Notes: generated by a model not told the origin, from the letters alone. A stretch of DNA of 64,000 bases from Candidatus Latescibacterota bacterium (GCA_965223905.1 CBDCXV010000001.1:1152001-1216000), one strand, 5' to 3'. Shown: positions 7,983-39,530, numbered from the stretch's first letter. Made by a program: numbers and translations.

Positions 7983-8008
7983 GGGCGTCTCCTTCGAGGT
8001 TTCGCGGA

Positions 8009-22089: not shown

Positions 22090-22145
22090 TGGATGAGGAC
22101 GGCACGGTCCGCGTCGACCGGAAGGACGGGTAGCCGATCAGGACC
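22090..22145 (+). repeat. 56-bp direct repeat (phyH 3' end), copy 1
   Basis: 50/56 identical to 23091-23146. Confidence 0.75.
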
Positions 22146-22325: not shown

Positions 22326-22327
22326 CC

Positions 22328-22597: not shown

Positions 22598-22599
22598 CC

Positions 22600-22900: not shown

Positions 22901-23090
22901 GACAGCCTGTTGGGAAGAGCCGGGCCCAGGCGTAGCGGCTGTGGCAGTCAATGGCGGGTCCCGACGCGGGAGGTGTCCACGCCGAGCAGCTCGCCGGTGT
23001 ACAGAGTCTCGATGTGGCGATTCGCAAAGTCGGGACTGAACCGCTCTTGGGGGTCGGATTTACTGCTCGCTCAATTCGAGACGTCGCTCC

Positions 23091-23146
23091 TGGATGAGGA
23101 CGGCACGGTCGGAGTCGACCCGAAGGACGGTTAGCCTGTCAGGACC
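23091..23146 (+). repeat. 56-bp direct repeat, copy 2; contains the recombinase stop codon
   Basis: Diverged copy of 22090-22145. Confidence 0.75.
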
Positions 23147-24021
23147 GGGCGGGGCCCAACAGCGTGTCGAGTGGGCTCTCGATCCGCACCAGGTCCTTCC
23201 GCCGCACGTGGGTGTAGATCTCCGTCGTTTTGGAGCTCCTGTGTCCGAGGAGCTCCTGTATGTAGCGCAGATCGGTCCCCCCTTCGAGCAGGTGCGTCGC
23301 AAAGCTGTGTCTCAGGGTGTCCACGGTCACCCGCTTGCGGATTCCCCGCGGCGGCAACCGCACGGGAGAACACTTTCTGCACCGACCGTTCGGTGAGATG
23401 CCGTCCTTCCCGGGCTCCGGGAAACAGCCACGTCGACTGCCGGTACGCCTTCCAGTAGGACCGAAGATCCTCGAGAATCGACCTGGGCAGCAGGGTGTAG
23501 CGATCCTTGCGCCCCTTGCCCTGCTGCACGCGGATCAACATGCGATCGCTGTCGATGTCGCTCACCTTGAGACGCACGACCTCCCCCACACGCAGCCCCC
23601 CGGCATACACCAGGGCCAGGATGACCCGGTGCTTGGGATTCCGAAGGGAATCGAGCAGTCGCAGCATTTCCCGCTGGCTGAGGATTTCGGGAAGCTGGCG
23701 ACCGCCACGCGGCCTGCGCAGACCCTCCAGGGAGGCGGGCTGCTTAAGGACTTCCCCGTAGAGGAAACTGAGAGCACTGTATGCGATGTTGAAGGCGGAG
23801 CGGCTCACCCCGCGGTCGAGGAGCCATTCGAGGTGGGACCGCACCTCGTCATGCCGTTCCCCCCGGTAGTCCCGTTTCCACTGAAGGAATCGCCGGCAGT
23901 AGCCCATGTACGACTTCTGCGTTTTCCTCGCGTACCCCCTCAGCTTCAGCTCGGATTCGACCCGGTTCAGGGTGTCGACCTCTTCGTCGGTCAGGTCTGG
24001 ATGTCTCCGATAGCGCCGCAT
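23139..24021 (-). pseudogene. Tyrosine recombinase (N-terminal SAM-like domain plus XerD-like catalytic domain), frameshifted; putative cassette integrase
   Basis: [63 protein letters not shown]; one extra base in the C4 run at 23344-23347. Confidence 0.88.
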
Positions 24022-24216
24022 GGGCCCGGTTACTCCAAGGCAAAGGTTTGGCCCTGCCGTAGAGAAAGCCGTGCCAGTCCGACACGGAAACCCGAAATCG
24101 TCCTATCTGTCGCAACCGCAATGAGTTACGCCGGATATCCCGAATCGGGAAAATAGTTGCAACTGTTCACCCCGGCACGTACCATCGTATCAGATAAGTT
24201 ACACCCAGCGGCCATT

Positions 24217-24259
24217 ATCCGAACCATTTGTTCGGATGCAATCAGATATATGACATGGG
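24217..24259 (+). other. Putative attI-like primary recombination site
   Basis: Palindrome ATCCGAAC-CATTT-GTTCGGAT, then GATATATGACATGGG, which complements the right end of cassette 1. Confidence 0.6.
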
Positions 24260-24344
24260 TTGTCACAGTACCAGTGAAATTCGACAGAGGCAAAGCTGGC
24301 ACGGTTGAAATCATGAGCCTGCAGGCGCTGGAGAAAAAACTGAC

Positions 24345-24836
24345 GTGGATCGCGTAGCCGTATTCGCAGATGTACAGAATGTTTACTACACAGTTAAGCA
24401 GCAACATAATTGCCATTTCGACTATGGTTCTTTCCTCAGGGAGGCGACAGCCGGCCGGAAACTGGTGAAGGCAGCAGCCTATGCTATTGACAAAGGCGAC
24501 AGAAAGCAGGCCCAATTTCAGCAAATTCTGAAACGGCTCGGTTTTGAGGTAAAGCTCGCGCCTTATATTCAGAGAGCTGACGGCTCAGCCAAAGGGGACT
24601 GGGACGTGGGCATTACGGTCGATATGTTGGAGTACGCAGATCGCGTGGATGTCGCTGTCCTGGTTTCAGGTGACGGAGACTACGCGCCTGCAATTGACAA
24701 GCTAATCAAGGAATCCAAGGTATCCGTCGAGGTGTACGGTGTCCCAGGACTAACTGCTAGTCGTCTAATCGAATCGTCGACGCGATTTGTGCCAATTCAA
24801 GGAGATCTGTTGCTGCCTATTCCCACCACGTGGTGA
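24345..24836 (+). CDS. Cassette 1: NYN-domain (LabA/DUF88) protein
   Basis: VFADVQNVYY, KGDWDVGITVD, LVSGDGDY, VEVYG. Confidence 0.88.
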   Translation: MDRVAVFADVQNVYYTVKQQHNCHFDYGSFLREATAGRKLVKAAAYAIDKGDRKQAQFQQILKRLGFEVKLAPYIQRADGSAKGDWDVGITVDMLEYADRVDVAVLVSGDGDYAPAIDKLIKESKVSVEVYGVPGLTASRLIESSTRFVPIQGDLLLPIPTTW

Positions 24837-24926
24837 CGTGGAAGCGACACTGTTTGCAAAGCCATGCACGCTAACGCACTCTCGCGTCGCTACCTCTCCG
24901 CGTTGATCAGCCTTGGAGCAATCATA

Positions 24927-25030
24927 CCCACGTCATATATCACAGCAATTCACGCTGCCGCCATTCGGCGCTTGGCCTTCGGCAAGTCGCTTTCGCGACT
25001 TCGTGAATTGTGAGAACGTTATGTGACATG
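24927..25030 (+). repeat. attC-like cassette site 1
   Basis: GTCATATATC-N4-CAATTCACG...CTTGGCCTTCGGCAA...CGTGAATTG-N7-GTTATGTGAC. Confidence 0.8.
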
Positions 25031-25065
25031 CGAAAACCTGCTATTCTGTTCAGTATAGAAGCCGA

Positions 25066-25954
25066 ATGATCCTCAGAATCTTCATTGCCCTGTTCACTGC
25101 TCAAGTATGGTCACTACCCCAGAGCCAGGCTTGTACGCTAGAGGACAGCGCTATTATCCACAGAATTCAAAGTACCGACGTACTTGTGGAAGCCACTGTG
25201 CTGTCAACGGTGAAGGATACACTAGGTGCATACATCGTACCTAGGGAAGCAACGCTTTCCGTCCAACGGGCTCTAGTGGGTGGCCCGCTATCGGAAGTCA
25301 TACACATGGAGCTCGACTCAACGCTCACCGAATTTTCCTCCTGTCTCGATTTGTATCAGGGCTACGAGGAAGGTGACCATTTTCTTGTCTTCCTCAGTAG
25401 AAAGAAGGATCTGGACGTTTTCTGGGCAGCACCCCACGTTCGTCCCTGGGTCGTTGACTACGATCCTGTGGATCCGTCTATACTTGCTAGATACATAGAA
25501 CAGACCGTTGCGCAGGAGGTAGAGCCTATCGCCTTCAGCTTTGAGGGGCCAGACACGGTTGTCGCCGGGGCCCAATTCAGATCTCGACTCACTATCACGG
25601 AACCGTTTCGACGAAACGCTGAGGGTTAGGATACCTGCAGAGAGGACCCTAGAAACCAGTTTTGAGTTCACTTTCTTGATACAAAATCCTGACGGAGATC
25701 GCTTTCCAGCTGATCACCCAATACTAGTTACAATTAAGCCCGGCGAAACCAAGACTGTTGAGTTGGACGACGCCTTTGAGAAAGTGCCGGAAGGTCATTT
25801 CAAGTATGAGGGAACATTGTGGTTGCCCGGCAACAAGGATCACTCAATCGCATACCACAACCGACTGTTTTCCAGGTGGATGTCTGCTCTACCCACCTCT
25901 GTCGAGCCTTCTTCTTGGGGCAATGTCAAGCATAGTTACTCGTCTTCGCCATGA
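25066..25954 (+). CDS. Cassette 2: secreted hypothetical protein, frameshift near 25600, C-terminal PTSVEPSSWGNVK motif
   Basis: Signal-peptide-like N terminus; ORFs 25066-25629 and 25541-25954 join with a 1-nt indel. Confidence 0.6.
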
Positions 25955-25962
25955 CCTGTAAA

Positions 25963-26066
25963 CACGTCACATAACACCTCGGTTTGCGCTTCGGCGCTGA
26001 ACGCGCCTCGACCTTCGGCAACCCCTTTGGGGTTCGCAAACCGGAGAACGTTAAATGAACATGGGA
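25963..26066 (+). repeat. attC-like cassette site 2
   Basis: GTCACATAAC-N4-CGGTTTGCG...CTCGACCTTCGGCAA...CGCAAACCG-N6-GTTAAATGAA. Confidence 0.82.
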
Positions 26067-26128
26067 AAAACGGTTTTATTGCAGTCTATTACACTATATA
26101 CACCGGACATCTAACGAGTGTTTTAACT

Positions 26129-27121
26129 ATGGATATAGAACTTCGGAAAATAGTCTCTGCTATTAGAGATTATGCCGTAGAAAAATTCAGTGATGCAGAG
26201 TGGGTCGATTTTGGGTACGTAACCGAGGCTTCAGATTTGATTGAAAACCATCCTCGACTTTTGAGATCACTTGCTTTTAATGACGATGATTACAGCTACT
26301 GTGCTACACAGGTCGTAAATGAGGCACTGGAAGAGCGCCCCGAGAAAATTCAGGAAGTTGTAGAACACTTTGGCGTCGATCTTTGGCTTGAGGAAAAAGA
26401 TGAACGTCGCCATCAGAGAGTATTTACGGAAACCCGACCGCTTGTTCCTTCCCCACGCTTCTGGCGGGAGGGGTATTTCCGACTCTTCATCAGCCATTTA
26501 GCGGATCACAAAGCCAATGTCCAAAGGCTTAAGCGGGAACTGGAGAAGTGGGGAGTATCTGCATTCGTTGCCCACACAGATATTGAGCCCACTCGAGAGT
26601 GGCAATTGGAGATCGAAGCAGCACTCTTTTCGATGGATGCAATGCTTCCAGTATTGATGCCAGGATTTAAAGAGTCAAACTGGACAGACCAGGAAGTCGG
26701 TGTAGCAATTGGCCTTAGGAAACTTATTATTCCGGCTCGACGAGGTATAGATCCCTACGGATTTATAGGAAAATATCAAGGTTTTCAGGCAGATGGAAGG
26801 ACTGTCGGACAAGTAGCTGAAGATGTCGTTAAAATTCTGCTTAAGAGCGAAAAGACGCGAGCCCAGATAGTTAGAGGTTTATCAGCGCGGATTAAAGTTG
26901 AAGTCAACGATCAGGTTGTTACCTCACGCTTAAAATTGATTGATGAGTTGAAAATTTGGAGCAAAGAGCAGGTAAAAGAGATTCTTGAAAGCGTTCTCAT
27001 CCGAGGTGGTGAGATGGCAGAAGACGTACAGGTAGCCTTCAATGATCTACAGGCTTCGCATGGCGTTGTTATAGTGCCACCGAAAGTAACAGCCTTTGAT
27101 GACGATGACCTTCCTTTCTGA
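26129..27121 (+). CDS. Cassette 3: TIR-domain protein with AbiJ-N-terminal-like domain
   Basis: HPRLLRSLAFNDDDY N-domain; TIR motifs RLFISH, AFVAHTDIEPTREW, SNWTDQEVG; AT-rich. Confidence 0.82.
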   Translation: MDIELRKIVSAIRDYAVEKFSDAEWVDFGYVTEASDLIENHPRLLRSLAFNDDDYSYCATQVVNEALEERPEKIQEVVEHFGVDLWLEEKDERRHQRVFTETRPLVPSPRFWREGYFRLFISHLADHKANVQRLKRELEKWGVSAFVAHTDIEPTREWQLEIEAALFSMDAMLPVLMPGFKESNWTDQEVGVAIGLRKLIIPARRGIDPYGFIGKYQGFQADGRTVGQVAEDVVKILLKSEKTRAQIVRGLSARIKVEVNDQVVTSRLKLIDELKIWSKEQVKEILESVLIRGGEMAEDVQVAFNDLQASHGVVIVPPKVTAFDDDDLPF

Positions 27122-27134
27122 CAGCAAGAATATA

Positions 27135-27244
27135 TCCCACGTCATTTAACATCCCGTTGACGCAGCGCCGCCATACGGCGGCTTGGCCTTCGGCACCCTG
27201 GCTACGCCAGGGTCGTCAACGGAAGAACCGTTATACGAACTGAG
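27135..27244 (+). repeat. attC-like cassette site 3
   Basis: GTCATTTAAC-N3-CCGTTGACG...CTTGGCCTTCGGCAC...CGTCAACGG-N7-GTTATACGAA. Confidence 0.82.
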
Positions 27245-27291
27245 AAAACCGACCATCGTGAATCCGACGCGAATCAGACAAGGGTTTACGA

Positions 27292-28011
27292 ATGATCCTT
27301 GAAGCATTGAATGATCTTTTCACATCAGAATTGCTGGCTGCCCACCCTGAAGAATGGGGCGTGACCGATCATTGTGATGCGCCTTCCGGCGTAGGGTACG
27401 CGACCACGATTACGCCGAGGGCAATTTCGACGGCACTCGACCGCGGTGCCGACGTAATTGTCACGCATCATGACGCCTGGGATTTTATGTATGGACAAAG
27501 AGAGAAGGTATACGATCTCTTACGCGACAACAGCCTGACCCATGTGTGGGCCCGACTGCCGTTGGACCAGTCGGACTTTGGCACATCGGCCACGCTTCTC
27601 TCGAAAATTGGCTGCGTGGAGGTCTGTAAGCCATCGAAAGGTGAAGTACGCCTTGGTGAACTGGATGAATCAACTGACTTCGAGGCGATCCGTTTGAAGC
27701 TCGATTCCCTATTGCAGGACCAACCACGTAGCCTCCATGATTCGGGTCGAGCCATCCGCAGAATAGGCTGCGTGACTGGGGCTGGCGTCTACACGAGTTA
27801 CCTCAAGGATGCGATGCCCCATGGTATTGACCTTTATCTGACAGGAGAGACTAGCCTTTACTTATTGGAGTGTGCCGTCCACCTTGGACTCAGCGCCCTG
27901 GTTTACTCCCACAACTATACCGAGTTGCCAGGAGTCCATATGTTCGCAGAGCGTTTTTGCCAAGCTCTTCAACTCGAGATGAAGGGACACCTCGGTGACT
28001 CTCACTTCTGA
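27292..28011 (+). CDS. Cassette 4: Nif3-like dinuclear metal-centre protein
   Basis: DVIVTHH, LPLD, IGCVTGAG, YLTGE, SHNYTE. Confidence 0.8.
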   Translation: MILEALNDLFTSELLAAHPEEWGVTDHCDAPSGVGYATTITPRAISTALDRGADVIVTHHDAWDFMYGQREKVYDLLRDNSLTHVWARLPLDQSDFGTSATLLSKIGCVEVCKPSKGEVRLGELDESTDFEAIRLKLDSLLQDQPRSLHDSGRAIRRIGCVTGAGVYTSYLKDAMPHGIDLYLTGETSLYLLECAVHLGLSALVYSHNYTELPGVHMFAERFCQALQLEMKGHLGDSHF

Positions 28012-28024
28012 TTCGGGCGAGCGA

Positions 28025-28127
28025 CTCAATTCGTAACACCGCGGTGTTGCGCTGCGCCGCTGTCGCTCCTTGGCCTCCGGCAAGCCGGCAACGCCAGGTT
28101 CGCAAACCGTGAGACGTTATATGGAAT
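28025..28127 (+). repeat. attC-like cassette site 4 (partly degenerate)
   Basis: TTCGTAAC-N4-CGGTGTTGCG...CTTGGCCTCCGGCAA...CGCAAACCG-N6-GTTATATGG. Confidence 0.75.
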
Positions 28128-28134
28128 ATCTGAA

Positions 28135-28895
28135 ATGAGAAAAGAAGAATCAATCGACGGAGACTATCTGGCCCCAGCGAAATACGACAAATACTACGAC
28201 GCGTATGCTACGCTTCCAGAACGGTTTCTGGCTGACCTCGCCTCTCGCGGAAGGGTCCTTGAACTGGCATGTGGAACTGGCCGGATAGCAATTCCCATGG
28301 CGGAGAACGGCCTTGAGGTGACCGGGATCGATTATTCCGAGCCGATGGTAAGCCTTGCCAGATCAAAGGCCGAAGACAGACAGGTGAGGGTCGACTGGAT
28401 CCGCGACGATATACGCTGCTTTGACACCGGTAAACGATATGGGTCGATCTTGCTACTGCACAACGCATTATGGCACCTGCACAACCTTTCCGATTTCGAA
28501 GAGTGCATTCGCTGTGTGAAGCGTCATCTCCTTCCGGGTGGTTTCTTCATTTGGACGTCTTTGTCCCTGGGGTGGAGATCCTCAATCGCGACCCAGGCAT
28601 TCGGTACCCATTCTCTAGCTACACGGACGTTGACACGGGACAAGAAGTGCAGGTTACTCAGTCCTACAGGTATGAAGCAGACACCCCGATCGCGCGCATG
28701 GTGCACTACAGAAAGGACTCTGATGAGATCGTTGGGGGTCTGAATCTCCGGATGTATTTCCCGAAGGAACTGGATGCCTTGCTGAAGTACAACGGGATAA
28801 GGATCAAGGAGAAATTCGGGAGCTGGGACCGTGACCCCTTTGGGCCGGACTCCAGGCATCAGCTTTGTTTCTGCACCACCACGGAGGACGGCTGA
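28135..28895 (+). CDS. Cassette 5: class I SAM-dependent methyltransferase, frameshift near 28551
   Basis: VLELACGTGR, GIDYSEPM; continues in a second frame as LDVFVP..LRMYFPKELDALL. Confidence 0.8.
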
Positions 28896-28907
28896 GCAGC
28901 CGGAATC

Positions 28908-29005
28908 GCATATCGGATATCACTCCAATTCACCCGGCGTCGACCGCTCTCCTGAGGCTGTGCCCACCCCGCATGCGCGAGACCGGAATTGTGAGAAAGT
29001 CTGGG
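28908..29005 (+). repeat. Eroded attC-like site 5
   Basis: ATATC-ACTC-CAATTCAC ... GAATTGTGAGAA resembles the arms of site 1; core and GTT are lost. Confidence 0.45.
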
Positions 29006-29165
29006 GACCTTAGGATGAATTAGTCGCGAGATACGGGAGATAATTCAGGCATGGCCAACTTGAAGGACGGGCCCTTCGACAAGCGCGTCGATTACGACCC
29101 GGATAGCAATGTTCCTGTTCTGTCCCCGGCATACGCAGTGGACTTCGAAGAATTTCGAGAGGTAG

Positions 29166-29705
29166 GTGATGAAATCTGAATACGTGATGGCGTTGATTTT
29201 TCGAATTCTGGGCCTTCTGTTGGGACTTCAAGCAGTAGCCTTCATCCCGGGCATAATGTTGGCGACTTCAGAGCCGTTTTCCGGGGGTTCGCCAACATGG
29301 CCGCTCGTGATGCCTCAAGTGCTCGGATTGGTGCTGTGTCTGCCAGTAGCTTTCGTGTTGTTTCGCTACGGACGATGGCTTGCCAACCTCGTTGTGGGTG
29401 AAGACGAGCATCTGGAACTGGCGGGAGTGGCCGTAGAGACCGCCGATACCCTACCGGTTTTTCGTTTGCTCTTGCGCGTTGTTGGCGCATTCGTTGTTGC
29501 CTGGTCGGTGCCCGAGTTGGCCGGTCATGGTTTCGGCCACGTGATGCTGTACCAGATGAGCGGCCCGCAAATCTGGACTCAGATCGCCCCGGGCGTTGTG
29601 AAGCTGGCTATAGGCGTATATCTGCTCAAAGGTGGGACACACCTTGTACGCTTCGCGTACGGCTCCCAGGCCATATCCGATGACCCAGGAAATGACGAAA
29701 CCTGA
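29166..29705 (+). CDS. Hypothetical four-TM membrane protein
   Basis: Four hydrophobic segments; GAGG RBS. Confidence 0.7.
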   Translation: MMKSEYVMALIFRILGLLLGLQAVAFIPGIMLATSEPFSGGSPTWPLVMPQVLGLVLCLPVAFVLFRYGRWLANLVVGEDEHLELAGVAVETADTLPVFRLLLRVVGAFVVAWSVPELAGHGFGHVMLYQMSGPQIWTQIAPGVVKLAIGVYLLKGGTHLVRFAYGSQAISDDPGNDET

Positions 29706-29882
29706 TTACATGCCAGTCTGGAAAGGCATAAGAAAGTCGCTTCCGTGAGGAGGTCATTTGTCGTGTAACAGCGCCATTCCGGATGGAGCTTTCACCTTCG
29801 CCAGAATGCTTCCCAAGTTCGGGAAACCGGCCGACTTGCTGTGAGAAGTGCAAGATCAGATCACCAGGATCGAGGACTCCCG

Positions 29883-30190
29883 ATGTATGAACAGGACAGG
29901 TACGTATTTGACACCCAAGGTTACGTGGTGTGGTGCTTCCCGACATCCTCACTCATTCCGAGGTTGAGCGCCTCGTCGACGCCTTCCCAAGGGATGACAA
30001 GGGTCAGGTCATGCTCGAAGCTCCTGACGACAACTCACATCATGAAAACAGGATCCAGGGAAGGGTGCTCGATCATCGAGCTCTGATTGAGGCCAGCGTC
30101 ACCGGCTACCTGGGACGCAGCTGCATGAAGCATCCTGCCGCCTGGGACATCGGTTCCGTCGGTAGCCTGGGGCCCATCAGGATCGCCTGA
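29883..30190 (+). pseudogene. PhyH-family N-terminal fragment
   Basis: DRYVFDTQGYVV..LPDILTHSEV; frameshifted and truncated. Confidence 0.5.
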
Positions 30191-30271
30191 TAGGGCACTG
30201 ATTCTCACCGAATCCGACCGGTATGTCCTCAAGGCAGTAGGCGATTTGATTGGAAAAAGGGGGCCCTCGAT

Positions 30272-31015
30272 ATGCCAGGTTTCATGTCATGGAAGGAAAT
30301 GAACTGGCTTCTGCCTGACTTTAATGAGACCGGGTTGATCTACCACGGAAGTCAGCCTGAAAATCTGGCTTCTATCTTCCAGAATGGCCTGATTCCCCAA
30401 TGCAATAGTCCCAGAGATGGGCACGAAACAATCTACAATGCACACTACCGGTACCGGCCCAAGTCCATTCCAGACTGGGTGGATCCGAGACGATGTATTT
30501 TTGGTTACATGAACCGGGCCAGACAAGGAGGCTGGGGCGGCATTGTGGATGGAATAGTCAATGGTGTAACCATTGGCATTAAAGCAGCAGATCATATCAC
30601 TGAGCGGACCTGGACAGCCTGCGTCCGGTTTTCAGATATGGTGGACTGCCCGGAGGAGGCAGGGTACTTCGATACGGAGGAGAGAAAAGCCTTTTTCAAG
30701 GACAGAATGGAACCGGTTTCGTGTAAAGCATACTGGGAGACCAGCCTCTCATTTCACGATAACTTGAAGATTCGCCTGGATCATTTGCTCCCGATGCAGG
30801 GATATCATGAGCTATTGATTTGTTCGGAGATTGATCCTGGGTTACTAAATCTTCGAGGGTTCAGAGTGCGGGGGGCAAATGGAACACGCGAGGTTGTCAG
30901 CAATGACCTGCCCGAGGTGTTTCTGAATGCCGAAGAAAAGCTTCGGAACAACATGCCAATTGTGGGGGAACTGAAGGCCGTCAGCGAATTCTGCGGCCGT
31001 GCCGCCAGCGCCTGA
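30272..31015 (+). CDS. Hypothetical protein with an ART-like YHG(S)..NL.SI..GL.P N-terminal motif
   Basis: IYHGSQPENLASIFQNGLIP; 247-aa intact ORF. Confidence 0.6.
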   Translation: MPGFMSWKEMNWLLPDFNETGLIYHGSQPENLASIFQNGLIPQCNSPRDGHETIYNAHYRYRPKSIPDWVDPRRCIFGYMNRARQGGWGGIVDGIVNGVTIGIKAADHITERTWTACVRFSDMVDCPEEAGYFDTEERKAFFKDRMEPVSCKAYWETSLSFHDNLKIRLDHLLPMQGYHELLICSEIDPGLLNLRGFRVRGANGTREVVSNDLPEVFLNAEEKLRNNMPIVGELKAVSEFCGRAASA

Positions 31016-31206
31016 CAACAACGGTTTCCCTTTGAACTGCGGCGGTATTTGCACGGCCGGGCTCAAAGGTGCGTAACAACCCGGGGAGACCAGAGTCTGG
31101 TGACCGCACCCCTGAAAGAAATGCGGGCAGCTGTGGCGGCCATGAAAAACGCAGGTGGGTATTGGCCTGGAGCTGAACCCAACAACGCCAACGAGGAGTC
31201 CCGAGA

Positions 31207-31548
31207 ATGAAAGAGATTGCGCCCACACTTCCGGTATCGGATGTGGAGAAAGCTGTCGAGTTCTATCGGGACAAGTTGGCGTTCAGTGTCGGTTTCCAGA
31301 ATCATCCCGTCTTTGCTTTGGTTCGGCGCGGCGCTGTCAGTATCGGTTTGCAGCTTGCTTCGCAGCGACGGGCAGCCGGGACAGGAAGCTGCTACATCTG
31401 GGTGGATGATGTCAGGGAAATTTATAATGAGTTGTCCGCAAGAGGAGTTGAATTCGCAGATGACATCGCGTTTCGCGATGAATATGAAATGACCGACTTC
31501 GTCCTCCATGATCCGGATGGGAACCACATCGGGATTGGCGGTGACTGA
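31207..31548 (+). CDS. VOC / glyoxalase-bleomycin resistance family protein
   Basis: LPVSDVEKAVEFYRDKL, YIWVDDV, DPDGNHI. Confidence 0.88.
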   Translation: MKEIAPTLPVSDVEKAVEFYRDKLAFSVGFQNHPVFALVRRGAVSIGLQLASQRRAAGTGSCYIWVDDVREIYNELSARGVEFADDIAFRDEYEMTDFVLHDPDGNHIGIGGD

Positions 31549-31648
31549 GGGGGTCATGAATGCGAATCTGGCAGGTTCCATCGCCCTGACTCCACCTCTA
31601 AGGCCAATGGGGGTAAAAAGCGGACGTTCTTAGTGGAAGCTCGATTCC

Positions 31649-32413
31649 ATGGAACTGACCAGAGATGACATTGAAGCTGGCTTCCGTAATCTCGGCCTGA
31701 AGGAAGGCGAAACAGTTGAAGTTCATAGCTCATTGAGCAGCTTGGGCAATGTGCAAGGGGGAGCTGAAACTGTCGTGGATGCCTTGATGAGTGTCGTGGG
31801 CGAAAGTGGAGCGTTGGTGATGTCCAACTATCCGCTCACTCCCCCGATCCCTTTGACTTCCGAAGAGAAATCCAAGGGAATAGGTTGGAAACTCAGGATT
31901 CTATCCGAGGGCTCAGACGAAAGGACCGTGACCGGGGCCATTTCCGACGAGTTTCGCTTCAGAGCTGATGTTGTATGCGGTTCTGGGACCCGTCGTGTCT
32001 GTGCCTGGGGCCCGGATGCGGATTTGCACGCCAGGGGATATCGACACTTGCTCGAAGTCGATGGGCTAGTTCTTCTCCTTGGTGTAGACATAGACCGATG
32101 TTCAAGCATGCATCTCGCGGACGGTGTGAAGGTTACCAGGCAGGCCAGGAAGCGGATGAATGCATTATGGCCTGATTCAGGGTGCAAAATCACGGACGAA
32201 GTCAGGCGGGAATATCCTTCAGATATAATCATTGGCCCCAGGGAAGGGACATCTGGAAATCCTTGGGAAAATGCCAGGCAGGAAGCTGAAAGACGAGGAT
32301 TGATAAGGAGAGGTAAGGTCGGTCGAGCAGACTGCTTGCTATTCAGGGCGAGGGATCTAGTCGGTCTGATTGAGGAAGTTCGTAAATCTGGGCCTTTCAA
32401 AGACGCATTGTAG
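31649..32413 (+). CDS. AAC(3) / Antibiotic_NAT-family N-acetyltransferase
   Basis: EVHSSLSSLGNVQGGAETVVDAL, TGAISD, VLLLGV..CSSMHLA. Confidence 0.8.
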   Translation: MELTRDDIEAGFRNLGLKEGETVEVHSSLSSLGNVQGGAETVVDALMSVVGESGALVMSNYPLTPPIPLTSEEKSKGIGWKLRILSEGSDERTVTGAISDEFRFRADVVCGSGTRRVCAWGPDADLHARGYRHLLEVDGLVLLLGVDIDRCSSMHLADGVKVTRQARKRMNALWPDSGCKITDEVRREYPSDIIIGPREGTSGNPWENARQEAERRGLIRRGKVGRADCLLFRARDLVGLIEEVRKSGPFKDAL

Positions 32414-32624
32414 AACATTTAGACGAGGAATAAATGGCGTCAAGGGGTTTGGCGCTGTCGATGCTTCGAAGGCGGGGAGGAAGCGGCCGTCGTGGTTGCG
32501 GTACAGCCCCACAAGAAGGGGTGCCGCTGTCCTCAGTGTGGGCGCCGGGGCGCGTGATAGCTCAGCGCGGAGAAAGCAGGGCAAAGGTCCAAGACGAACC
32601 GCGGCGGTCCTGGCCGGAAAGACT

Positions 32625-34105
32625 ATGCAATACTTCCAACCTGATGGGGACTTTTTCGTCGGGACTGCTTCCTGTGTCGTGTGGGTCGAAACGATCGATA
32701 TGTTCTCCGGGACCATCTGCCCTTCTACCACGAAGGTGTCTTCCGGCTCTTCTACCTTCTGGACGAGGGCCACCACGGAGCACTCGGCGGGTTGGGAGGC
32801 CATCAATGGGCACAGGCCAGCACGACGGACCTCGTTCACTGGGAACACCATCCGCTCCAAGCATGCCATCCCGATCACCGAGGAACGTGAAGGTTCCATC
32901 TGCACCGGTTCGGTGTTCTTCCACGAAGGGACATACTACGGTTTCTACGCGACGCGCATGCGCGACAGGACGCAGCATCTGAGTCTTGCAACCAGTCGAC
33001 TGCATGCCCTTCTACCACGAAGGTGTCTTCCGGCTCTTCTACCTTCTGGACGAGGGCCACCACGGAGAAGGCCGACCCCAACCCCTTCGCCTCGCCGCCC
33101 ACCGGCTACGACCCTGTTCATTACCGAGACCCCATCGTCTTCAAGGATCGTTGTGAGGGGCTCTTCCACATGCTCGTTACGGCGTTCCTGGAAGACTGGC
33201 CCATCGGCGACCGCGGCGGATGCCTTGCCCACCTGGTCTCCCCCGACTTGAAACACTGGGAGAACAGAAAGCCGTTTATTGTCCCGGGTTTGCCGGGGGC
33301 GCCCGAATGTCCGGACTATTTCTTCTGGAATGGCTGGTACTACCTCATTTTCAGCAACCGTGGGGTTGCCCGCTACAGAATGTCGCGAGAGCCATTTGGA
33401 GCCTGGCTTCGGCCGAAGGTCGACACGCTTGACGGAAATGCCGCACGGGTAATGAAGACGGCGCCATTCGGGGACGGCAGGCGCCTTGGTGTTGCCTGGA
33501 TCGGCACACGCGAGAACAACCGGGACGATGGACCGTTTCAGTGGGGGGGCAACGCGGTTTTCCGAGAACTTGTACAGCATGACGACGGCACCCTTGGTGC
33601 GAAATTCCCGGACGAGCTGACCCCTTCCGGTGAGCCGTTGTCCGCCATGAACATGTCCGCCCTCCACCTGTCCGCGCTCGATGCCGATACGAGAGTTGAG
33701 GGACGCAGTGTCCACGCAGCAGCTCGGCAAGGCCTGGCAGCGGCCGGGTGCTCAGGCATTCCACGCAATGCGCGACTGGCAATCCGTGTCCTTCCTCAGC
33801 CAGGCCCCCTGGGTTTCGGGCTTCGTCTCAGGGCTGGTGAGCCCTTCGACTCCGGATACGACCTGCGCTTCTCACCCTGTGACCGGGTCGCCAGGCTGCA
33901 CGATCAGTGGATATATGGTGTCGATGGACTGGATCGCTCCTTCTCCCTGGAGATAGTTCTCAGGGACGACATCATTGACGTTTGCATCGACGGCCGCAGG
34001 ACGCTTGTCGATCGATGTCCGGAAAGGCGGGGCGACCGGATGCTGCTGTATGCGCAGGATTCCGGGGTCACGTTTGAGGTTGCCGAGATCGCTGCTCTGC
34101 CGTAG
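32625..34105 (+). pseudogene. GH32-like five-bladed beta-propeller glycosidase, scrambled
   Basis: HQWAQASTTDLVHW, SICTGS, YRDP and PECPD motifs; frameshifts and a 63-bp internal duplication. Confidence 0.7.
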
Positions 34106-34143
34106 CGCAAAGAGAATTGCGGGCCACACCACCCGCCACCAAT

Positions 34144-34200
34144 CCCCAACACCCGGGGAACAGAAGCTGGGGTTCACAAACAGACAGCCCGTTAGGCGCC
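34144..34200 (+). repeat. Right half of an eroded attC-like site
   Basis: GGGGTTCACAAAC..GTTAGGC resembles GGGGTTCGCAAAC..GTTAAAT of site 2. Confidence 0.4.
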
Positions 34201-34220
34201 AGTCGAGAAAACTCCCGAAC

Positions 34221-34775
34221 GTGAGACGGACGGCCACCAAAATCCCACTCAGGGTGCAGACAACGCGGTTGGAAACCTTCAACCGCGAACGTCACGACTG
34301 GCCGGTCTCCCTGCGCCGGAAGTGCTCGGCGGATTCAGGGCGAACCTGGGTCTTCACGGATGGTGGCGGTGATGGAAGGTTCGGGGCTGTCGTTGTGCGT
34401 CCGGGAATCGAAGAGCACCGGATAGCGGGACGGCGTGAGTCACGGGCAAACAGCGTGGTTGCCGAACTCGATGGGGTCGTGTTGGGTCTGGAGAATTGCC
34501 AACTGGGTGAGAGAATCACGATCGTGTCCGACTATCTGTGGACAGCTTACTATATCAACGGCTGGCGCCGCGTGCACAACCCCCGGCTGCGTGAAGGGGT
34601 TGTACAGGCGAGGACCTGTCTCGAAAAGCTGCGGGGCGCCGTGTTCGTGCATTACGCGCTGGAAACCGGGGGCGAATGTGCCTTCAGACGATGGAACGCT
34701 GTCGCTCATGACCTGTGTCAAAAGGACATGGTCGGGACCAACTCGCGTACTCGTTGGGACAAGACCAGCGCTTGA
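34221..34775 (+). CDS. RNase HI-like domain protein (start uncertain)
   Basis: WVFTDG, VAELDGV..GL, ITIVSD, NAVAHDL. Confidence 0.6.
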   Translation: MRRTATKIPLRVQTTRLETFNRERHDWPVSLRRKCSADSGRTWVFTDGGGDGRFGAVVVRPGIEEHRIAGRRESRANSVVAELDGVVLGLENCQLGERITIVSDYLWTAYYINGWRRVHNPRLREGVVQARTCLEKLRGAVFVHYALETGGECAFRRWNAVAHDLCQKDMVGTNSRTRWDKTSA

Positions 34776-34873
34776 GCGGAATCTCTCTCATGCCAGGGAG
34801 TGACTCTTAAGAGGTCGCCTTTCCCCGGTATTATCATTAGTCAGACACGTCACCTAAAAAGGAAACGCGCAAA

Positions 34874-35641
34874 ATGGGACACTGCTGGACGCTTGCCCTT
34901 GAACAGCAGACCGACCTGACCCCATCCCATGGCTCGGTTTCCGAGTTGGCGGCAGCGGTACGCCGAGGCGCGGATCTCAGGCTTTACATGACCACGGATC
35001 GGTACGAGGAAACCCTCTACTTCCAGCAGACTTATGCCGGTGAGAATGGCGCGTTCGCAGGGCTGATGAGCCACCACCACAGCTACGTGCACCGCGGCCA
35101 GGACATAGAGCAACCATACATCAGCATCTTCAAATACGACGACTCCGGGACCTTCTCCCACGTGAAGTGGATGTGGCGAGATATCCGCCTGGATGAGAGC
35201 CAGGCCTATCCGTACGGGATATATCGATGGTTTACCTGCGACCGCTGGCGAACCGTCTACGAGCACGATGCCGATGGCAGTCCCGTGCGCGGAAATCTGG
35301 AGGAACTGAAAGAGCATGTCCGGCTGGGGCACTCGGTTCAGGTAGGAGTCCGCCAACTGTTCGGTTTGGCCGAGGATACCACTGCCGGGCCATCGCACAT
35401 CTCGTTTGTCACCACGATGCAGCCGCTCATCCGGGATGGCCATGTGCAGTCCAACTGCGACCTCGTTGCGATAGGCGCCCCGAAATGGCCGTGCACCTGG
35501 CGCGACGGCCTCCATGTGGCAGTGATGCTCCCCTCCACGTCCGGTGAGATTCTCTGCTTCCTTGCCGAACCGGGGAATCTCCCGTTTAGACGGGTCATGC
35601 GCCGGCGCCCCATGCAGTGGATGGTGGCGGAGATGGAGTGA
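34874..35641 (+). CDS. Hypothetical protein
   Basis: 255-aa ORF with RBS, co-oriented with the array. Confidence 0.65.
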   Translation: MGHCWTLALEQQTDLTPSHGSVSELAAAVRRGADLRLYMTTDRYEETLYFQQTYAGENGAFAGLMSHHHSYVHRGQDIEQPYISIFKYDDSGTFSHVKWMWRDIRLDESQAYPYGIYRWFTCDRWRTVYEHDADGSPVRGNLEELKEHVRLGHSVQVGVRQLFGLAEDTTAGPSHISFVTTMQPLIRDGHVQSNCDLVAIGAPKWPCTWRDGLHVAVMLPSTSGEILCFLAEPGNLPFRRVMRRRPMQWMVAEME

Positions 35642-35719
35642 ACGCGCGAACCGTTGAATGAACCGCCAAACCCGGAGTAGGAACAGGAAGCGTTGCCGCC
35701 GGGAAACCAACCGAGGAAT

Positions 35720-36205
35720 ATGCCAAGAAAACCGATTCAAGTGCTTGTGATTCCATTCCGCATAGGATCTGAGCCGGAGTTTGCGGTTTTTCACCGTTCC
35801 GACGAGGAGATGTGGCAATTCATTGCCGGTGGCGTTGAGGACCAGGAGGACGCAATGCAGGCCGCCCGGCGGGAGGCAGAAGAAGAGGCGTCCATACCGA
35901 GTAACTTGTCGTTTGTTTCGCTGGATTCAGTTGCCTCGATTCCCAGGACATCATTTGAAGAGACGGAGCACTGGCCGGAAGATCTGCTTGTTGTACCCGA
36001 GTATTCGTTCGCCGTCGATGTCGGCGACCGAGAGCTGGTGCTATCCTTCGAACACGACGAGGTGAGGTGGGTGCCTTACGACAAAGCCCGGTGTCTCCTT
36101 ACATGGGACAGCAATCGGGTGGCGCTCTGGGAGCTCAACGAGAGGCTGGCCAACCACACAACAGTGAGGTCTCCAGAACTTTTCGGTAGTCTTCCGGGTG
36201 TGTAA
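35720..36205 (+). CDS. NUDIX hydrolase (NudB-like)
   Basis: WQFIAGGVE..AARREAEEE Nudix box, LSFEH..W. Confidence 0.88.
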   Translation: MPRKPIQVLVIPFRIGSEPEFAVFHRSDEEMWQFIAGGVEDQEDAMQAARREAEEEASIPSNLSFVSLDSVASIPRTSFEETEHWPEDLLVVPEYSFAVDVGDRELVLSFEHDEVRWVPYDKARCLLTWDSNRVALWELNERLANHTTVRSPELFGSLPGV

Positions 36206-36317
36206 TTCCACCATCCGCAAATACATCGGTATTCGCCTCGACGCTGATCAGGAGGTCCGAGGGCAGTTAATTGTTTGGGGATAATTGGTCCAAACCAGGA
36301 GACAGGGAGAAAAGGGA

Positions 36318-36938
36318 ATGTTCGGAAAACTCTTCGTCGTATGCCTCATTGTTGCCGGTTCATGTTTCAGAGTCGAGGCCGAGCGTCCGGCTGGAATGGT
36401 TCTCTACTTCAAGTCCGGGGACGAGGTATTCCTGCTTCTCGCGGACCATCGGGAAAAGGACAGAGGTTGGGCGGGTTACGGAGGAGGTCCGTATGAGGGG
36501 GAGAGCGCGGCTGAAACGGCGGCGAGAGAAACGGAGGAAGAGACGAGAGGCTACTTTCTGCGGGATGATCTGCTCGCCCTGATCAAGGGCCAGAAGCCAG
36601 TGATAGACAATGGCTTTGCCTTGTACTTCGCGGAAGTTCCCTTTGTTCCCGCACCACTTGTGACCAACAATCCACTTCCCAGCGACGACGAATCCTACGT
36701 TGAAAGAGGTCCGTACGCATGGATTCCGTATTCCGAACTCGAGCCATACTTGAAAGGTCCGATCGAACCTGAAGACAGATATTCAATTGAAGAGAGGTTA
36801 CTTCCCGGTGAGCGATATACTTCCTGGTACTGGCCTGTCTGGCTTGGCAGTGTCTGGAAATCCGTGGAAACGAATTCGATTCCCTGGGACGTCGGAGTGA
36901 GCCCCGACCTGTCCGGAAAGGGGAGCCATGACCCCTGA
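36318..36938 (+). CDS. Secreted NUDIX-domain protein
   Basis: Signal-like N terminus; GGG..EGESAAETAARETEEET. Confidence 0.75.
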   Translation: MFGKLFVVCLIVAGSCFRVEAERPAGMVLYFKSGDEVFLLLADHREKDRGWAGYGGGPYEGESAAETAARETEEETRGYFLRDDLLALIKGQKPVIDNGFALYFAEVPFVPAPLVTNNPLPSDDESYVERGPYAWIPYSELEPYLKGPIEPEDRYSIEERLLPGERYTSWYWPVWLGSVWKSVETNSIPWDVGVSPDLSGKGSHDP

Positions 36939-37776
36939 GTCCGAGAGCGGGATGAAGGTCGGTGAGCAGATCGCCAGATACTACACTGAACTGCCCGAGG
37001 TGGCCGGAGTAGTCCTTGGCGGGTCAGTAGCACGGGGCACTGCCGACCCGAGTTCCGATCTGGACCTCTTCGTTTTCTGCCACGACTACCCAAGTAAACG
37101 TTTTCGATCTGAAGTCGTTGCCGGATTTCAGGGGGAAGGGTGGAAGCAACATGGCAATAAGCTCGATCGGGGGATTTTGAGGGACTGCTTTCGGGGTTCC
37201 GGTCATCGAATCGATATCGAGCACGTACGCGTCAGCAGCTATGAGTCTGCAGTCGAAGATGTCTTGTGTCGCCACGACACCGATCGCGACAAACAAAGCC
37301 TGCTGGGAGGATTGCTCGACTCCCGTTCATTGCATGACACCGGGATTATCGAAAAATGGAAGTCGAGGATATCCAAGTGCCCGGATGGCCTGCAGCGAAA
37401 GGTGCTCGAGGAGAATCTTTCCATGAGTCCTCTTTGGATCCCCGAGATCTACGCCCGGAACCGGGACGATCACTTGTATCTGTTGGAGGCGCTGAGCAGT
37501 GTTGGAACCTCCATCCTCGGCTTGCTGCATGGCCTCAACCGGATGTACCAGCCTGGCGAGTACAAGCGGGTCACGCTCCTTCTGTCCCGACTGGAGGTGG
37601 CACCACCGAACATCGTGGAAAGGTGGAAGTCCGTTTTCCAGTACGGGTCCGTTGGAGTGGTAAAGGAGCTTGAGACCATCGTTCTGGAGATCTTCAGCCT
37701 CGTTGAGGCACGCTGTCCGGATATTGATGTCGCATCCGCTCGGACCGGCTTCACGACCGACACGGATACAGAGTAG
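36928..37776 (+). CDS. Pol-beta-type nucleotidyltransferase domain protein
   Basis: LGGSVARGTADPSSDLDL. Confidence 0.82.
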   Translation: MTPESESGMKVGEQIARYYTELPEVAGVVLGGSVARGTADPSSDLDLFVFCHDYPSKRFRSEVVAGFQGEGWKQHGNKLDRGILRDCFRGSGHRIDIEHVRVSSYESAVEDVLCRHDTDRDKQSLLGGLLDSRSLHDTGIIEKWKSRISKCPDGLQRKVLEENLSMSPLWIPEIYARNRDDHLYLLEALSSVGTSILGLLHGLNRMYQPGEYKRVTLLLSRLEVAPPNIVERWKSVFQYGSVGVVKELETIVLEIFSLVEARCPDIDVASARTGFTTDTDTE

Positions 37777-38007
37777 ACGTAGACCCTGGAATTTATGGCG
37801 AAGAAAGGAAGGAGCTCAGGGAAATTAGCCCCAAACCTCGTTCCTTCGGTTGCACCCCATCTTGTCCGGATCTGACCCCAAACGATGCGCATCGGTCTTA
37901 TTTCAGATACTCACTGCCCAGAGCGATGCTCCGCCTACCCAGTCGCTTTGGGCCAGGTATTCCGGGATCTCGATCTGACAGCCGGTCAACTCTCCACCCG
38001 GATCGTT

Positions 38008-38481
38008 ATGGCGACCCTGCACCTGCTTTGCGGTTTCATTGGAGCAGGTAAAACAACCTTCGCGAAATCGCTGGAAAGAGATCATTCCGCGGTTCTGTTC
38101 AGCCATGATGAATGGATGGTCCGGCTGTATGGGCGAAATCCCCCCAGTGAACATTTTCAGACATACTATCACAGGGTCGAGGATCTGATCTGGCAGATGG
38201 CCTCCCGTTTTCTCGCCCTGGGACATGATGTTGTTCTCGATCATGGTTTTTGGAGTCGCGCTGACCGGGATCTGGCAAGGCGCAAGTCTCAGGAAATCGG
38301 CGTTCCAGCGAAGCTCTATTTTCTGCACTGCTCCGAGGAAGTAATGCGGGAACGAGTACTGATCCGGACTGAAGAATCACAAGAATCCCTTTACATCAAC
38401 GAACATGCTTTCGAGAAGCTCAGGGAGCGATTTGAAGCACCCATGGATGACGAGGAGTACGTTGCGGTCAAGACCGACTGA
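38008..38481 (+). CDS. P-loop kinase (AAA_33-like), preceded in frame by a metallophosphoesterase stub from 37885
   Basis: LLCGFIGAGKTTFA, SHDEW, VVLDHGFWSRADR; stub MRIGLISDTH. Confidence 0.8.
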   Translation: MATLHLLCGFIGAGKTTFAKSLERDHSAVLFSHDEWMVRLYGRNPPSEHFQTYYHRVEDLIWQMASRFLALGHDVVLDHGFWSRADRDLARRKSQEIGVPAKLYFLHCSEEVMRERVLIRTEESQESLYINEHAFEKLRERFEAPMDDEEYVAVKTD

Positions 38482-38535
38482 AACCAGGGGAACACACTTA
38501 TTCCCTCCACGCAGGCTGAGAGGGTATTGAAGACT

Positions 38536-38706
38536 ATGCAGATCTCGGTCGAAGATAATCCCACTTCTGAAGATTGCGATTTCGTTCGGAACCGCCTCCA
38601 TGAGCATAATGCAGCAATTGTGGGACCGGACAACTATGTGCCTCTTGCCATTTTCGTCCGTGACGATACGGGCACAATTCCCGCAGGCCTGCTCATTGTT
38701 CGATGA
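38536..38706 (+). pseudogene. GNAT acetyltransferase N-terminal fragment
   Basis: LHEHN...PLAIFVRDD.G.I.AGL followed by an early stop. Confidence 0.5.
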
Positions 38707-38737
38707 TTCAGATTCATGCCATCAAGGGGATCCTGAG

Positions 38738-39210
38738 ATGATTTCCGTGTTGCTGTTCGATGTCGGGGATACCCTTCTGGACGCATCCTCCGGACAACAG
38801 GACGCCCTGCAGGAGGCACATCGAACCGCTCTTGCCAAATTTGGATTCGAGCTGTCAGCGGGAGAGTACCAGCAGCTCGACCACGAAAAAATGCTGCAGT
38901 TCGTCCCCAGTGCCATGCACGCCATCACCTGGCACTTTGCCAGGCCCGACGTGTGCCTGTTCAATGAGATTATCGAGGAAGTGGGGTCACACTATCCCCA
39001 AATTCGCGCTCTCGGGTTCAGGTTGCATCCCGGAATCGCAGCGGTCCTCGAACAGCTGGCCGGGGAATCCGGGGAATACACGCTTGCGCTGGCTGGCAAC
39101 GCCCCGGCAGACATCACCGAGGTCCTGGACGACCTGGGTGTGTTGCGCTGGTTTCGCCACAGGGAGGTGTCGGGAAGCATAGGGGTCAAGAAGCCTGACG
39201 AACGTTTCTT
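38738..39210 (+). pseudogene. HAD-family hydrolase, 3'-truncated
   Basis: LLFDVGDTL...GVKKPDERFF, then runs directly into the antisense SDR fragment. Confidence 0.7.
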
Positions 39211-39530
39211 CCGCGGCGGAAGAGATGTTGACGATCCTGCCGTAGCGGCGCTCGATCATGTGCGGGGCGAGCGCCTTGCAGAGGAAGAAGGGGCCCTTGA
39301 CGTGTATGTCGTAGTTGCTGTCCCATTCCTCGCCGGTGAAGTTGGTGAACGGGGAACCGACGATGCTGCCGAAGTGGCCGGCGTTGTTGACGAGAATGTC
39401 GATGGCGCCGAGGCGCTCGATCGACTCTGAGACGAGGTCCTGGCAGGCGGACTCATCGGTTATGTCGGCGCCGATGGCGATCGCGGTTGCCGCTTCGCTC
39501 TCGAGCTGGTCGGCGGTGGCCTGCGCCCTG
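39211..39530 (-). pseudogene. Internal SDR fragment, diverged duplicate of 44119-44438
   Basis: DILVNNAGHFGSIVG..HVKGPFFLCK; aligns colinearly over 320 bp. Confidence 0.85.

Follow-up and report, generated by a model that had tools for sequence, protein, structure and literature searches.

A probable sedentary integron-like cassette platform in a Candidatus Latescibacterota chromosome, adjoining a tyrosine recombinase that lacks the I2 segment

Introduction

Integrons are defined and searched for by means of the additional domain of their integrase, IntI, a domain held to enable the enzyme to work on folded single-stranded attC sites. What is to be made, then, of a chromosomal locus in which attC-type sites, cassettes and a conserved insertion point stand beside a recombinase that is without the I2 segment of that domain? 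Such a locus raises the question of how hairpins are recognized without I2, or whether the recombinase acts on double-stranded sites. The locus described here lies in the window, which is the whole stretch of 64,000 nucleotides (nt) analysed, at positions 1152001-1216000 of contig C1 (CBDCXV010000001.1) in the 7.9-Mb assembly of a Candidatus Latescibacterota bacterium (GCA_965223905.1; 11 contigs, guanine-plus-cytosine (GC) content 0.64). All positions without a contig name refer to the window. In this locus a tyrosine recombinase gene is divergent from four cassettes, each of which ends in a hairpin site of about 100 nt; a fifth site is decayed, and beyond the cassettes lie about 10 kb of co-oriented, lower-GC genes in which recognizable sites are absent. 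The locus is probably a sedentary chromosomal integron-like cassette platform of a bacterium that the analysis places in the phylum Gemmatimonadota; its integrase belongs to an I2-less sister family of IntI. It is likely, on the anatomy of the locus and on comparative and population data, that this family catalyses the cassette movements. Five kinds of observation carry these readings: the structure and covariation of the sites, the exact borders of the cassettes, a conserved junction, cassette polymorphism, and the recurrent linkage of such recombinases to such arrays.

The GC content to the left of the locus is 0.68-0.72 and drops to 0.45-0.62 between about 20 kb and 43 kb; between 24345 and 39430, where GC is 0.45-0.62, every long open reading frame (ORF) lies on the plus strand. 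A first-pass annotation had described a tyrosine recombinase transcribed away from about 15 kb of co-oriented, lower-GC genes, and the ORF strands and base composition agree with it. It had also seen each of the five proximal genes as bounded by a site, which holds for four good sites; the fifth is decayed, and sites cover only the first 4.9 kb or so.

The recombinase and its missing segment

The recombinase gene occupies the left end of the locus, as follows.

23139-24021 (ORF 23131-24021), minus strand: gene for a tyrosine recombinase of the I2-less family sister to IntI, frame-broken in the assembly
23346-24021, minus strand: N-terminal part of the recombinase, in a frame ending ...SRAVAAAG
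23139-23345, in frame 23139-23534, minus strand: C-terminal part of the recombinase, ending ...IYTHV

The product carries the Pfam domains Phage_int_SAM_4 and Phage_integrase, and intact orthologues are 293-314 amino acids (aa) long. The frame is broken by one extra G in a run of G near 23343-23346, where three relatives have one G fewer; this is either a real mutation or an assembly error, and the indels listed in public contigs do not include the position of the G-run. In addition, a C-to-G change has replaced the box II His by Asp (V-D-TLRH), at a position where at least 90% of 50 family members have His. The window copy is probably now inactive, which makes the array likely to be a recent fossil. 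The same 50 members show little or no variation at the catalytic positions R, K, H, R, H and Y.

Against curated profiles the protein stays below the cut-off for integron integrases. The two window pieces match TIGR02249 (integron integrase; curated cut-off 265 bits) with 128.4 bits (profile positions 2-181) and 85.9 bits (254-315). The intact orthologue P0002 reaches 233.8 bits, again in two stretches that skip about profile positions 180-230, while a canonical IntI from the same bacterial family scores 367.1 bits. P0002 likewise stays below the cut-offs of NF040815 (recomb_XerA_Arch; 213.5 against 220 bits) and of TIGR02224 and TIGR02225 (XerC and XerD; 177.3 and 177.6 against 335 and 330 bits). 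The annotation had proposed an integron-like platform run by a recombinase clade other than IntI, one that standard IntI-based models may miss, and had allowed that a repaired protein might score as IntI after all. The P0002 score speaks for the proposal, as do the absence from the genome of any gene above the cut-off, a gene order that differs between congeners, and the recurrent linkage of recombinase and sites; searches based on IntI would not call this clade.

The gap in the profile match corresponds to a short stretch in the protein. In an alignment to VchIntIA (2a3v), residues 22-187 and 207-285 match 10-178 and 240-318, and 19 residues of the recombinase stand opposite 61 in this IntI4; archaeal XerA (4a8e) aligns end to end in one piece. 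The spacing from the GKG motif to HxLRHSF is 73 residues in 34 family members (12 close, 22 more distant); eleven canonical IntI have 113-114 at this place, and seven Xer-like proteins 77-80. The IntI-specific segment, the site of the I2 helix, is thus short of about 41-42 residues, and the annotation's reading of the short KDR...WLFP stretch as one without the IntI insertion is borne out by these spacings. An AlphaFold model of P0002 (predicted local distance difference test score, pLDDT, 84.4) has no helix between residues 194 and 210, where I2 would sit; its closest solved structure is VchIntIA (E 4.8e-18), followed by XerA.

It might be supposed that the gene is simply a canonical intI decayed through deletion of a segment, and the locus an ordinary integron with a dead integrase. 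The best named model (TIGR02249) and the best structure (2a3v) are indeed those of integron integrases, and the window copy is broken. However, the spacing is exactly 73 residues in all 34 members, drawn from many phyla, the catalytic residues are conserved, the identity of the members to the hits from IntI-bearing genomes of the bacterial family is about 37% or lower, and in the trees they group apart from the 11 IntI rows sampled. A deleted intI was rejected on the alignment spacing and the trees, and is very improbable.

Cassettes and attC-type sites

The sites that close the cassettes, all of which are on the opposite strand to the recombinase gene, are these.

24928-25029, plus strand: site 1, crossover G at 25018
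25962-26061, plus strand: site 2, crossover G at 26050
27137-27241, plus strand: site 3, crossover G at 27230
28024-28127, plus strand: site 4, crossover G at 28116
about 28905-29005, plus strand: decayed fifth site, which shares L-box-like words alone

The four good sites have a common layout, CACGTCAyATAAC-(5 nt)-L''...L'-(6-7 nt)-GTTAnnn, with R'' (..TAAC) and R' (GTTA..) boxes; site 2 has arms of unequal length, L'-R' exceeding R''-L'' by 2 nt. With the four sites as its source, a covariance model returns self scores of 94.9-100.6 bits, and the next best match in the 64-kb window has 11 bits (filters off). The fifth site folds no better than its shuffles (z +0.85) and is matched neither by this model nor by one built from 25 sites of the window genome; hence the count of four good sites and one decayed. 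Between 28.1 and 39.2 kb no further sites were found, the four-site model giving 8.6 bits at best (filters off) and the 25-site model nothing. A remnant at 29734-29761 resembles a 3' half-site.

Single-strand folding beats shuffles in three of the four sites, with z between -3.5 and -5.9. In the alignment of the 25 sites, which was fitted to the model and is thereby biased toward structure, 86.7% of cells are paired and compensatory changes occur in 20 of 27 pairs; slid controls are 29-43% paired, and none of 500 shuffles reached the covariation score. The sites would act as folded single strands. For every cassette, the start agrees best with the reverse-complemented R'' box of the site that closes that same cassette (10, 10, 8 and 8 of 11 positions), a signature of former circles. 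As in classical integrons, the crossover falls at G|TT. The claim that the locus has a site architecture of its own has therefore to be given up: as far as could be tested, the layout is that of a classical attC.

Between these sites the following cassettes can be delimited.

24246-25018, plus strand: cassette 1, NYN-domain gene (24345-24836) with site 1
25019-26050, plus strand: cassette 2, unknown gene in overlapping frames (25066-25629, 25541-25954) with site 2
26051-27230, plus strand: cassette 3, AbiJ_NTD5 and TIR-domain gene (likely start 26129, end 27121) with site 3
27231-28116, plus strand: cassette 4, NIF3/DUF34 gene (27292-28011) with site 4
28117-29005, plus strand: cassette 5, SAM-methyltransferase gene (frames 28135-28743, 28470-28895) with the decayed site

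The product of cassette 3 (26129-27121), an AbiJ N-terminal domain 5 fused to TIR, is defence-like.

The platform module and the insertion junction

Between the recombinase gene and the first cassette lie two segments.

24022-24152, no strand assigned: recombinase-proximal leader, with patchy conservation in six genomes and a hairpin at 24069-24087
24153-24245, plus strand: platform (attI-like) module, ending at the crossover G 24245 (...CAATCAG|)

In six genomes from five genera, the approximately 225 bp that separate the recombinase start codon from the first cassette can be aligned. Conservation stops exactly at ...CAATCAG|TTA (24245), and in each of the six genomes a different first cassette follows. 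The last 95 bp before this junction form the conserved module, for which the window copy scores 95.4 bits under the module model. It contains the hexamers TTGCAA (24157-24162) and TACCAT (24180-24185), conserved and 17 nt apart, a box CAGATAAGTTACAC, given as a CAGATAAGTAACAC box in the conserved 95-bp alignment, and an inverted repeat ATCCGAAC / GTTCGGAT at 24217-24237. The repeat forms a hairpin of 8-9 bp whose pairing is kept through changes on both arms. TTGCAA-N17-TACCAT matches 8 of 12 consensus promoter positions, and a sigma-70 scan of 23900-24400 returned no promoter-like sites; the module is nevertheless a candidate holder of a promoter.

An Rfam search of 22000-30000 (E up to 1) gave no matches, so the module is not a known RNA. 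The possibilities that it is a full attC-like fold or an ORF-less cassette were considered and set aside: single-strand folds give only the 8-9 bp hairpin, and the 5' end is not complementary to the internal R''-like box. In the leader, on the minus strand and 48-66 nt upstream of the recombinase start codon, an 8-bp GC-rich hairpin (24069-24087) is followed by a T-rich run and adjoins patches conserved in six genomes (AGAGAAA, ATGCCAG, CTATCT); this hairpin may serve to regulate the recombinase gene.

Evidence of cassette movement

Copies of the same cassettes in other positions indicate where the array has changed. The NYN cassette is identical at 777 of 785 nt to a copy in a 17-site array on contig C10 of the same genome, and the identity begins at the junction G (24245). 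A third copy follows another module on C10, and copies are also present in the congener G011 and in G015. The cassette is first in the window array and fourth in G011, from whose array cassettes 2 and 3 are absent; the window and G011 are collinear, on the other hand, over a stretch that begins with cassette 4 (27.2 kb) and reaches at least 36.7 kb, with 83-98% aa identity. It is therefore the part beside the insertion site that varies, the distal block being old and fixed. An invariant gene order across related strains, which would have spoken against a capture platform, is not what this pair of genomes displays.

The same junction appears in public metagenomes. Contigs from four runs, belonging to four studies, begin or end at 24245. 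One contig has 359 extra nt inserted exactly at this position, and at one loose end the end of a module is joined directly to 27230, the start of cassette 4. Summed depth differs by up to about 20-fold between neighbouring cassettes. The search of public runs for the locus listed no RNA data set. Three further joints (24990>28033, 25022>28099 and 27195>28033) were not counted, their sides being 21-22 nt long and lying within similar sites.

Two positions, 24334 and 24853, have one extra base each relative to the other NYN copy of the same genome and to contigs of the four public runs, in both cases outside the NYN ORF. Together with three frame-split genes in 5 kb, these extra bases hint at indel errors in the assembly. 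The 17-site array itself (C10:1333434-1352473) is headed by a platform module and has no adjoining recombinase gene; upstream of it lie genes for a TonB-dependent receptor and an MmeI-type restriction-modification protein.

Linkage of recombinase and sites within the bacterial family

Sequence searches delimit the recombinase clade sharply, with 74-94% identity among orthologues and 57% or less for the next relatives. Among 76 genomes of the same bacterial family, the clade is present in 8: the window genome, G009, G010, G011, G012, G013, G014 and G015. The 25-site model gave 70 matches in 11 stretches. All six orthologous loci with enough flank have sites beside the gene (5, 6, 4, 19, 14 and 13), which in every case lie 5' of it and on the other strand. 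Three paralogues (46-54% identity; G006, G007 and G010) also adjoin sites, here co-oriented, and two of them have a single GNAT or APH cassette. On contig C3 of G006, a gene for a group II intron reverse transcriptase/maturase (L179, 11017-12690) heads an array of at least seven sites.

Canonical IntI above the TIGR02249 cut-off was found neither in the window genome nor in the seven other clade-bearing genomes. It occurs in 9 of the 76 family genomes, none of which carries the clade. Around the canonical intI of eight family genomes (18-20 kb on each side), the site model found nothing in 106 kb at E up to 0.01, and a single match of 15.7 bits in 205 kb at E up to 1. A self-similarity scan of these surroundings detected no repeat arrays, a scan that heterogeneous attC sites would escape, for which reason the intI integrons cannot be called empty on its account. 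The annotation had recommended a covariance model of the four sites and a scan of the window and related genomes; the window was scanned with the four-site model and the related genomes with the 25-site model, and the link between recombinase and sites recurs. As to whether the sites might occur genome-wide with no link to this recombinase, the link stands, in relatives and across phyla, and exclusiveness does not, for sites are found beyond such loci as well.

Other phyla and phylogeny

A scan of species genomes yielded 80 loci of relatives with 43-60% identity, from many phyla and including some archaea; titles among them include Altiarchaeum, Micrarchaeota and Methanoperedenaceae. A site model trained on the sites of the window genome alone was applied to these loci (E up to 0.1). 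All 45 of its matches lie downstream of the recombinase and on its strand, in downstream sequence totalling 304 kb, and none lies in the 545 kb upstream. Among the 48 loci with at least 1 kb of downstream sequence, 20 carry a match. In a complete Desulfitobacterium genome, a 385-aa recombinase is followed, 135 nt past its stop codon, by ...GGTAG|TTATCTG, and behind the gene come 12 co-oriented ORFs, between which lie 11 sites that share the R''/L''/L'/R' build.

The profiles were also run on seven relatives linked to arrays in other phyla. Six reach the cut-off of NF040815 (221-249 against 220 bits), a model that NCBI names 'site-specific tyrosine recombinase/integron integrase', and the seventh, a partial sequence, scores 199.3; all seven are below the cut-off of TIGR02249, which matches each of them in two stretches. 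In none of five array-bearing genomes of other phyla was a canonical IntI above the TIGR02249 cut-off present.

In a tree rooted on Xer proteins, IntI (11 rows; support 99 by the approximate likelihood ratio test of Shimodaira-Hasegawa type, SH-aLRT) is sister to the I2-less family (47 rows; SH-aLRT 96). An earlier tree of 52 rows left the relation between the two unresolved. The window clade nests among the I2-less rows and is outside the Xer rows in both trees. The suggested tree with IntI and Xer proteins was thus built, and it keeps the recombinase family apart from the 11 IntI rows. On the wider question, we lean towards the view that a large I2-less sister family of IntI runs attC-type platforms in many bacterial and archaeal phyla, among them Gemmatimonadota, Bacillota, Bacteroidota, Ignavibacteriota, Nitrospirota, Atribacterota and DPANN archaea.

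Proposed mechanism and alternative explanations

In the proposed mechanism, the recombinase would recombine one attC-type hairpin site with another and so release cassettes in circular form. The circles would be inserted at the conserved platform site about 225 bp upstream of the recombinase gene, cut between G and TT. The module would probably supply the promoter for cassettes that are otherwise promoterless, and the adjacent recombinase would be the catalyst.

Several observations weigh against a platform run by this family. Work by Messier and Roy in 2001 reportedly found the I2 segment necessary for the activity of IntI on folded attC. The judgement of Cury et al. 2016 (PMC4889954) on recombinases without intI_Cterm also counts against it. 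The sites and modules are also more widely distributed than the recombinase. The site type is present in 38 of the 76 family genomes, including 22 of 31 in the genus g12, and two genomes that have a canonical IntI elsewhere, G006 and G007, contain 39 and 14 site matches. The platform module occurs in 30 of the 76. The window genome has five modules, each heading an array or a single cassette, and only one adjoins a recombinase. Modules are present in 20 of the 31 g12 genomes, with up to 11 in each and some inside arrays, while five closed g12 genomes with 7-11 modules each have only two Xer-like recombinases each by the family profile. The recombinase gene itself is often incomplete or interrupted: among the copies of the seven relatives only three are full-length and uninterrupted (G011, G013 and G015), G014 having one stop, G010 being truncated, G009 lying at a contig end and G012 being a fragment, and the window copy is broken too. 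The six orthologous loci may stem from one ancestral arrangement, in which case they are not six independent observations and the independent weight falls on the variety of first cassettes, on the paralogues and on the loci in other phyla. Finally, the trees were made by a quick method with few Xer rows and with true archaeal XerA absent.

Part of this evidence could be explained if the arrays were clusters of attC sites lacking integron-integrases (CALINs), left by a canonical IntI since lost or acting in trans, with the short recombinase a bystander engaged, for example, in resolution or stabilization. The nine family genomes with canonical IntI, two of them rich in sites of this type, would fit such an origin, as would the persistence of arrays and modules in g12 without the family recombinase and the four of five array heads in the window genome that have no recombinase. 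The published view that I2 is needed (PMC4889954, PMC9024848) adds to this explanation. Against it, canonical IntI is in no clade-bearing genome and sites of this type are absent from the 20 kb or so around eight canonical intI genes; the linkage recurs across phyla with a polarity of 45 out of 45 and with IntI in none of the five genomes concerned; and the insertion point is conserved along with the recombinase gene. CALINs of a canonical IntI are therefore an unlikely explanation.

The g12 genomes bear on another explanation as well, namely that housekeeping XerC/XerD-like recombinases move the cassettes and that the short recombinase is a dispensable paralogue. The pdif modules of Acinetobacter plasmids are thought to be moved by XerC/XerD, and the closed g12 genomes have arrays and modules together with two Xer-like recombinases each. 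However, a dif-type site consists of two arms around a central spacer, and the sites described here, hairpins of about 100 nt with covarying arms and a G|TT crossover, are unlike that short layout; nor would Xer activity explain the strict polarity of the arrays and their adjacency to the I2-less family across phyla. This explanation is quite improbable, more so than the preceding one. A platform served by the I2-less family is thus the preferred reading, and for the g12 arrays it leaves three possibilities: either they are relics, or a recombinase acts on them in trans from elements outside the assemblies, or another enzyme moves them. In two closed g12 genomes, G049 (L180) and G054 (L181), modules alternate with attC-type sites inside arrays and the family recombinase is absent.

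The distal gene block and the flanks

Beyond the cassettes lies a last feature.

29006-39430, plus strand: site-less, co-oriented, lower-GC block of genes

It encodes an AAC(3)-like acetyltransferase, a GH32-like protein, two NUDIX proteins, a nucleotidyltransferase, an AAA_33 kinase, a HAD hydrolase and unknowns, and probably consists of old cassettes whose sites have eroded. The ORF at 34874-35641 is found again inside the site-bounded array of G010, which fits this view. The aminoglycoside 3-N-acetyltransferase-family gene (31649-32413; PF02522, 103 bits) has a counterpart in the collinear block of G011. Inside the overlapping GH32-like ORFs 32370-33251 and 33023-34105, a perfect 63-nt direct repeat (32718-32780 and 33005-33067, 287 nt apart) looks like a short tandem duplication disrupting a gene.

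At the opposite side of the recombinase gene, a 56-nt direct repeat with 89% identity (22090-22145 and 23091-23146) encloses about 1 kb that is absent in the congener G011, where the 3' end of the recombinase gene borders on a PhyH-like gene (window 21687-22133). Within the insert are a DUF2283 ORF (22328-22597) and a duplicate of the 3' end of the flanking gene. Further to the left, at 8001-11000, two more kilobases of low GC (0.50 and 0.56) lie within a flank otherwise of 0.64-0.72.

Implications

If the I2-less family does run such platforms in many phyla, cassette capture at hairpin sites either predates the I2 insertion or works without I2, and the I2-less family is a candidate for the ancestral state of integron integrases. 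Integron-type platforms would be far more widespread than surveys based on IntI report, and arrays filed as CALINs, as well as phyla said to be integron-free, may hold complete platforms. Some lineages, such as the genus g12, would keep or turn over arrays and modules without a dedicated recombinase. Base-level definitions are now at hand for intact orthologues, for the insertion site and for the hairpin sites.

Comparison with known systems

The closest known counterparts are the sedentary integrons, as exemplified by Vibrio cholerae and its integrase VchIntIA. The locus resembles them in its divergent recombinase gene, adjoining insertion site and co-oriented promoterless cassettes, and in that cassettes end in imperfect palindromes with ...AAC and GTT... 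boxes and a G|TT crossover. It resembles them also in having sites that are homogeneous within the taxon, variable cassettes nearest the insertion site and additional arrays without an integrase. It differs in the missing I2 segment, in scoring below the cut-off of TIGR02249 and in a platform module that is present in several copies; moreover, in other phyla the recombinase gene of most relatives points the same way as the array. In the IRIWQGKG motif of IntI4 the Trp holds an extrahelical base, and here this Trp aligns with an Arg. With archaeal XerA (4a8e, 5hxy), a chromosome-resolution enzyme acting at dif, the recombinase shares a domain plan without the insertion. Unlike XerA genes, the genes of the present family head cassette arrays, and in sequence and fold the protein is closer to VchIntIA. 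NCBIfam nevertheless files the I2-less family with XerA-type recombinases.

Two other systems invite comparison. The archaeal integrons of Ghaly et al. 2022 (PMC9668308) are stated to have IntIs with the IntI-specific domain, which match both IntegronFinder profiles, and an attI immediately downstream. They are similar in that attC arrays occur outside the classical phyla and in a downstream attI geometry like that of the 43-60% identical relatives; they differ in that the recombinases described here are without the additional domain. The rAID-1 systems of Bacteroidales (Ross et al. 2019, bioRxiv 10.1101/471110) have a 5' XerD-family recombinase and repeats that the preprint calls 'reminiscent of integrons'. 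Their stated criteria are at least 44% identity to the B. fragilis recombinase, at least two co-directional downstream genes and low GC. The likeness lies in a XerD-family-type recombinase that heads a long, low-GC, co-directional array with intergenic repeats; the difference is that the window recombinase is divergent and the co-directional criterion would fail, while low GC and repeats are present. In the text consulted, rAID-1 arrays are treated as stores of immunity genes in one order, and an analysis of attC hairpins, of the crossover or of the relation to IntI is absent.

The full-text literature searched, whose coverage leaves out most subscription journals, contained no prior description beyond the remark on rAID-1 and the study of Cury et al. 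2016 (PMC4889954). That study lists 21 recombinases without intI_Cterm in IntI-less genomes, each near fewer than three attC sites, and sets them aside as not being IntI; four of the 21 are called 'intermediate between IntI and Xer'. IntegronFinder 2.0 (PMC9024848) keeps the IntI-based definition and finds only rare elements in Firmicutes and Bacteroidetes. The program would most likely call the window locus and the other arrays of the genome CALINs. Unlike CALINs (PMC4889954), however, the array described here is adjoined by both a conserved recombinase gene and a conserved insertion site.

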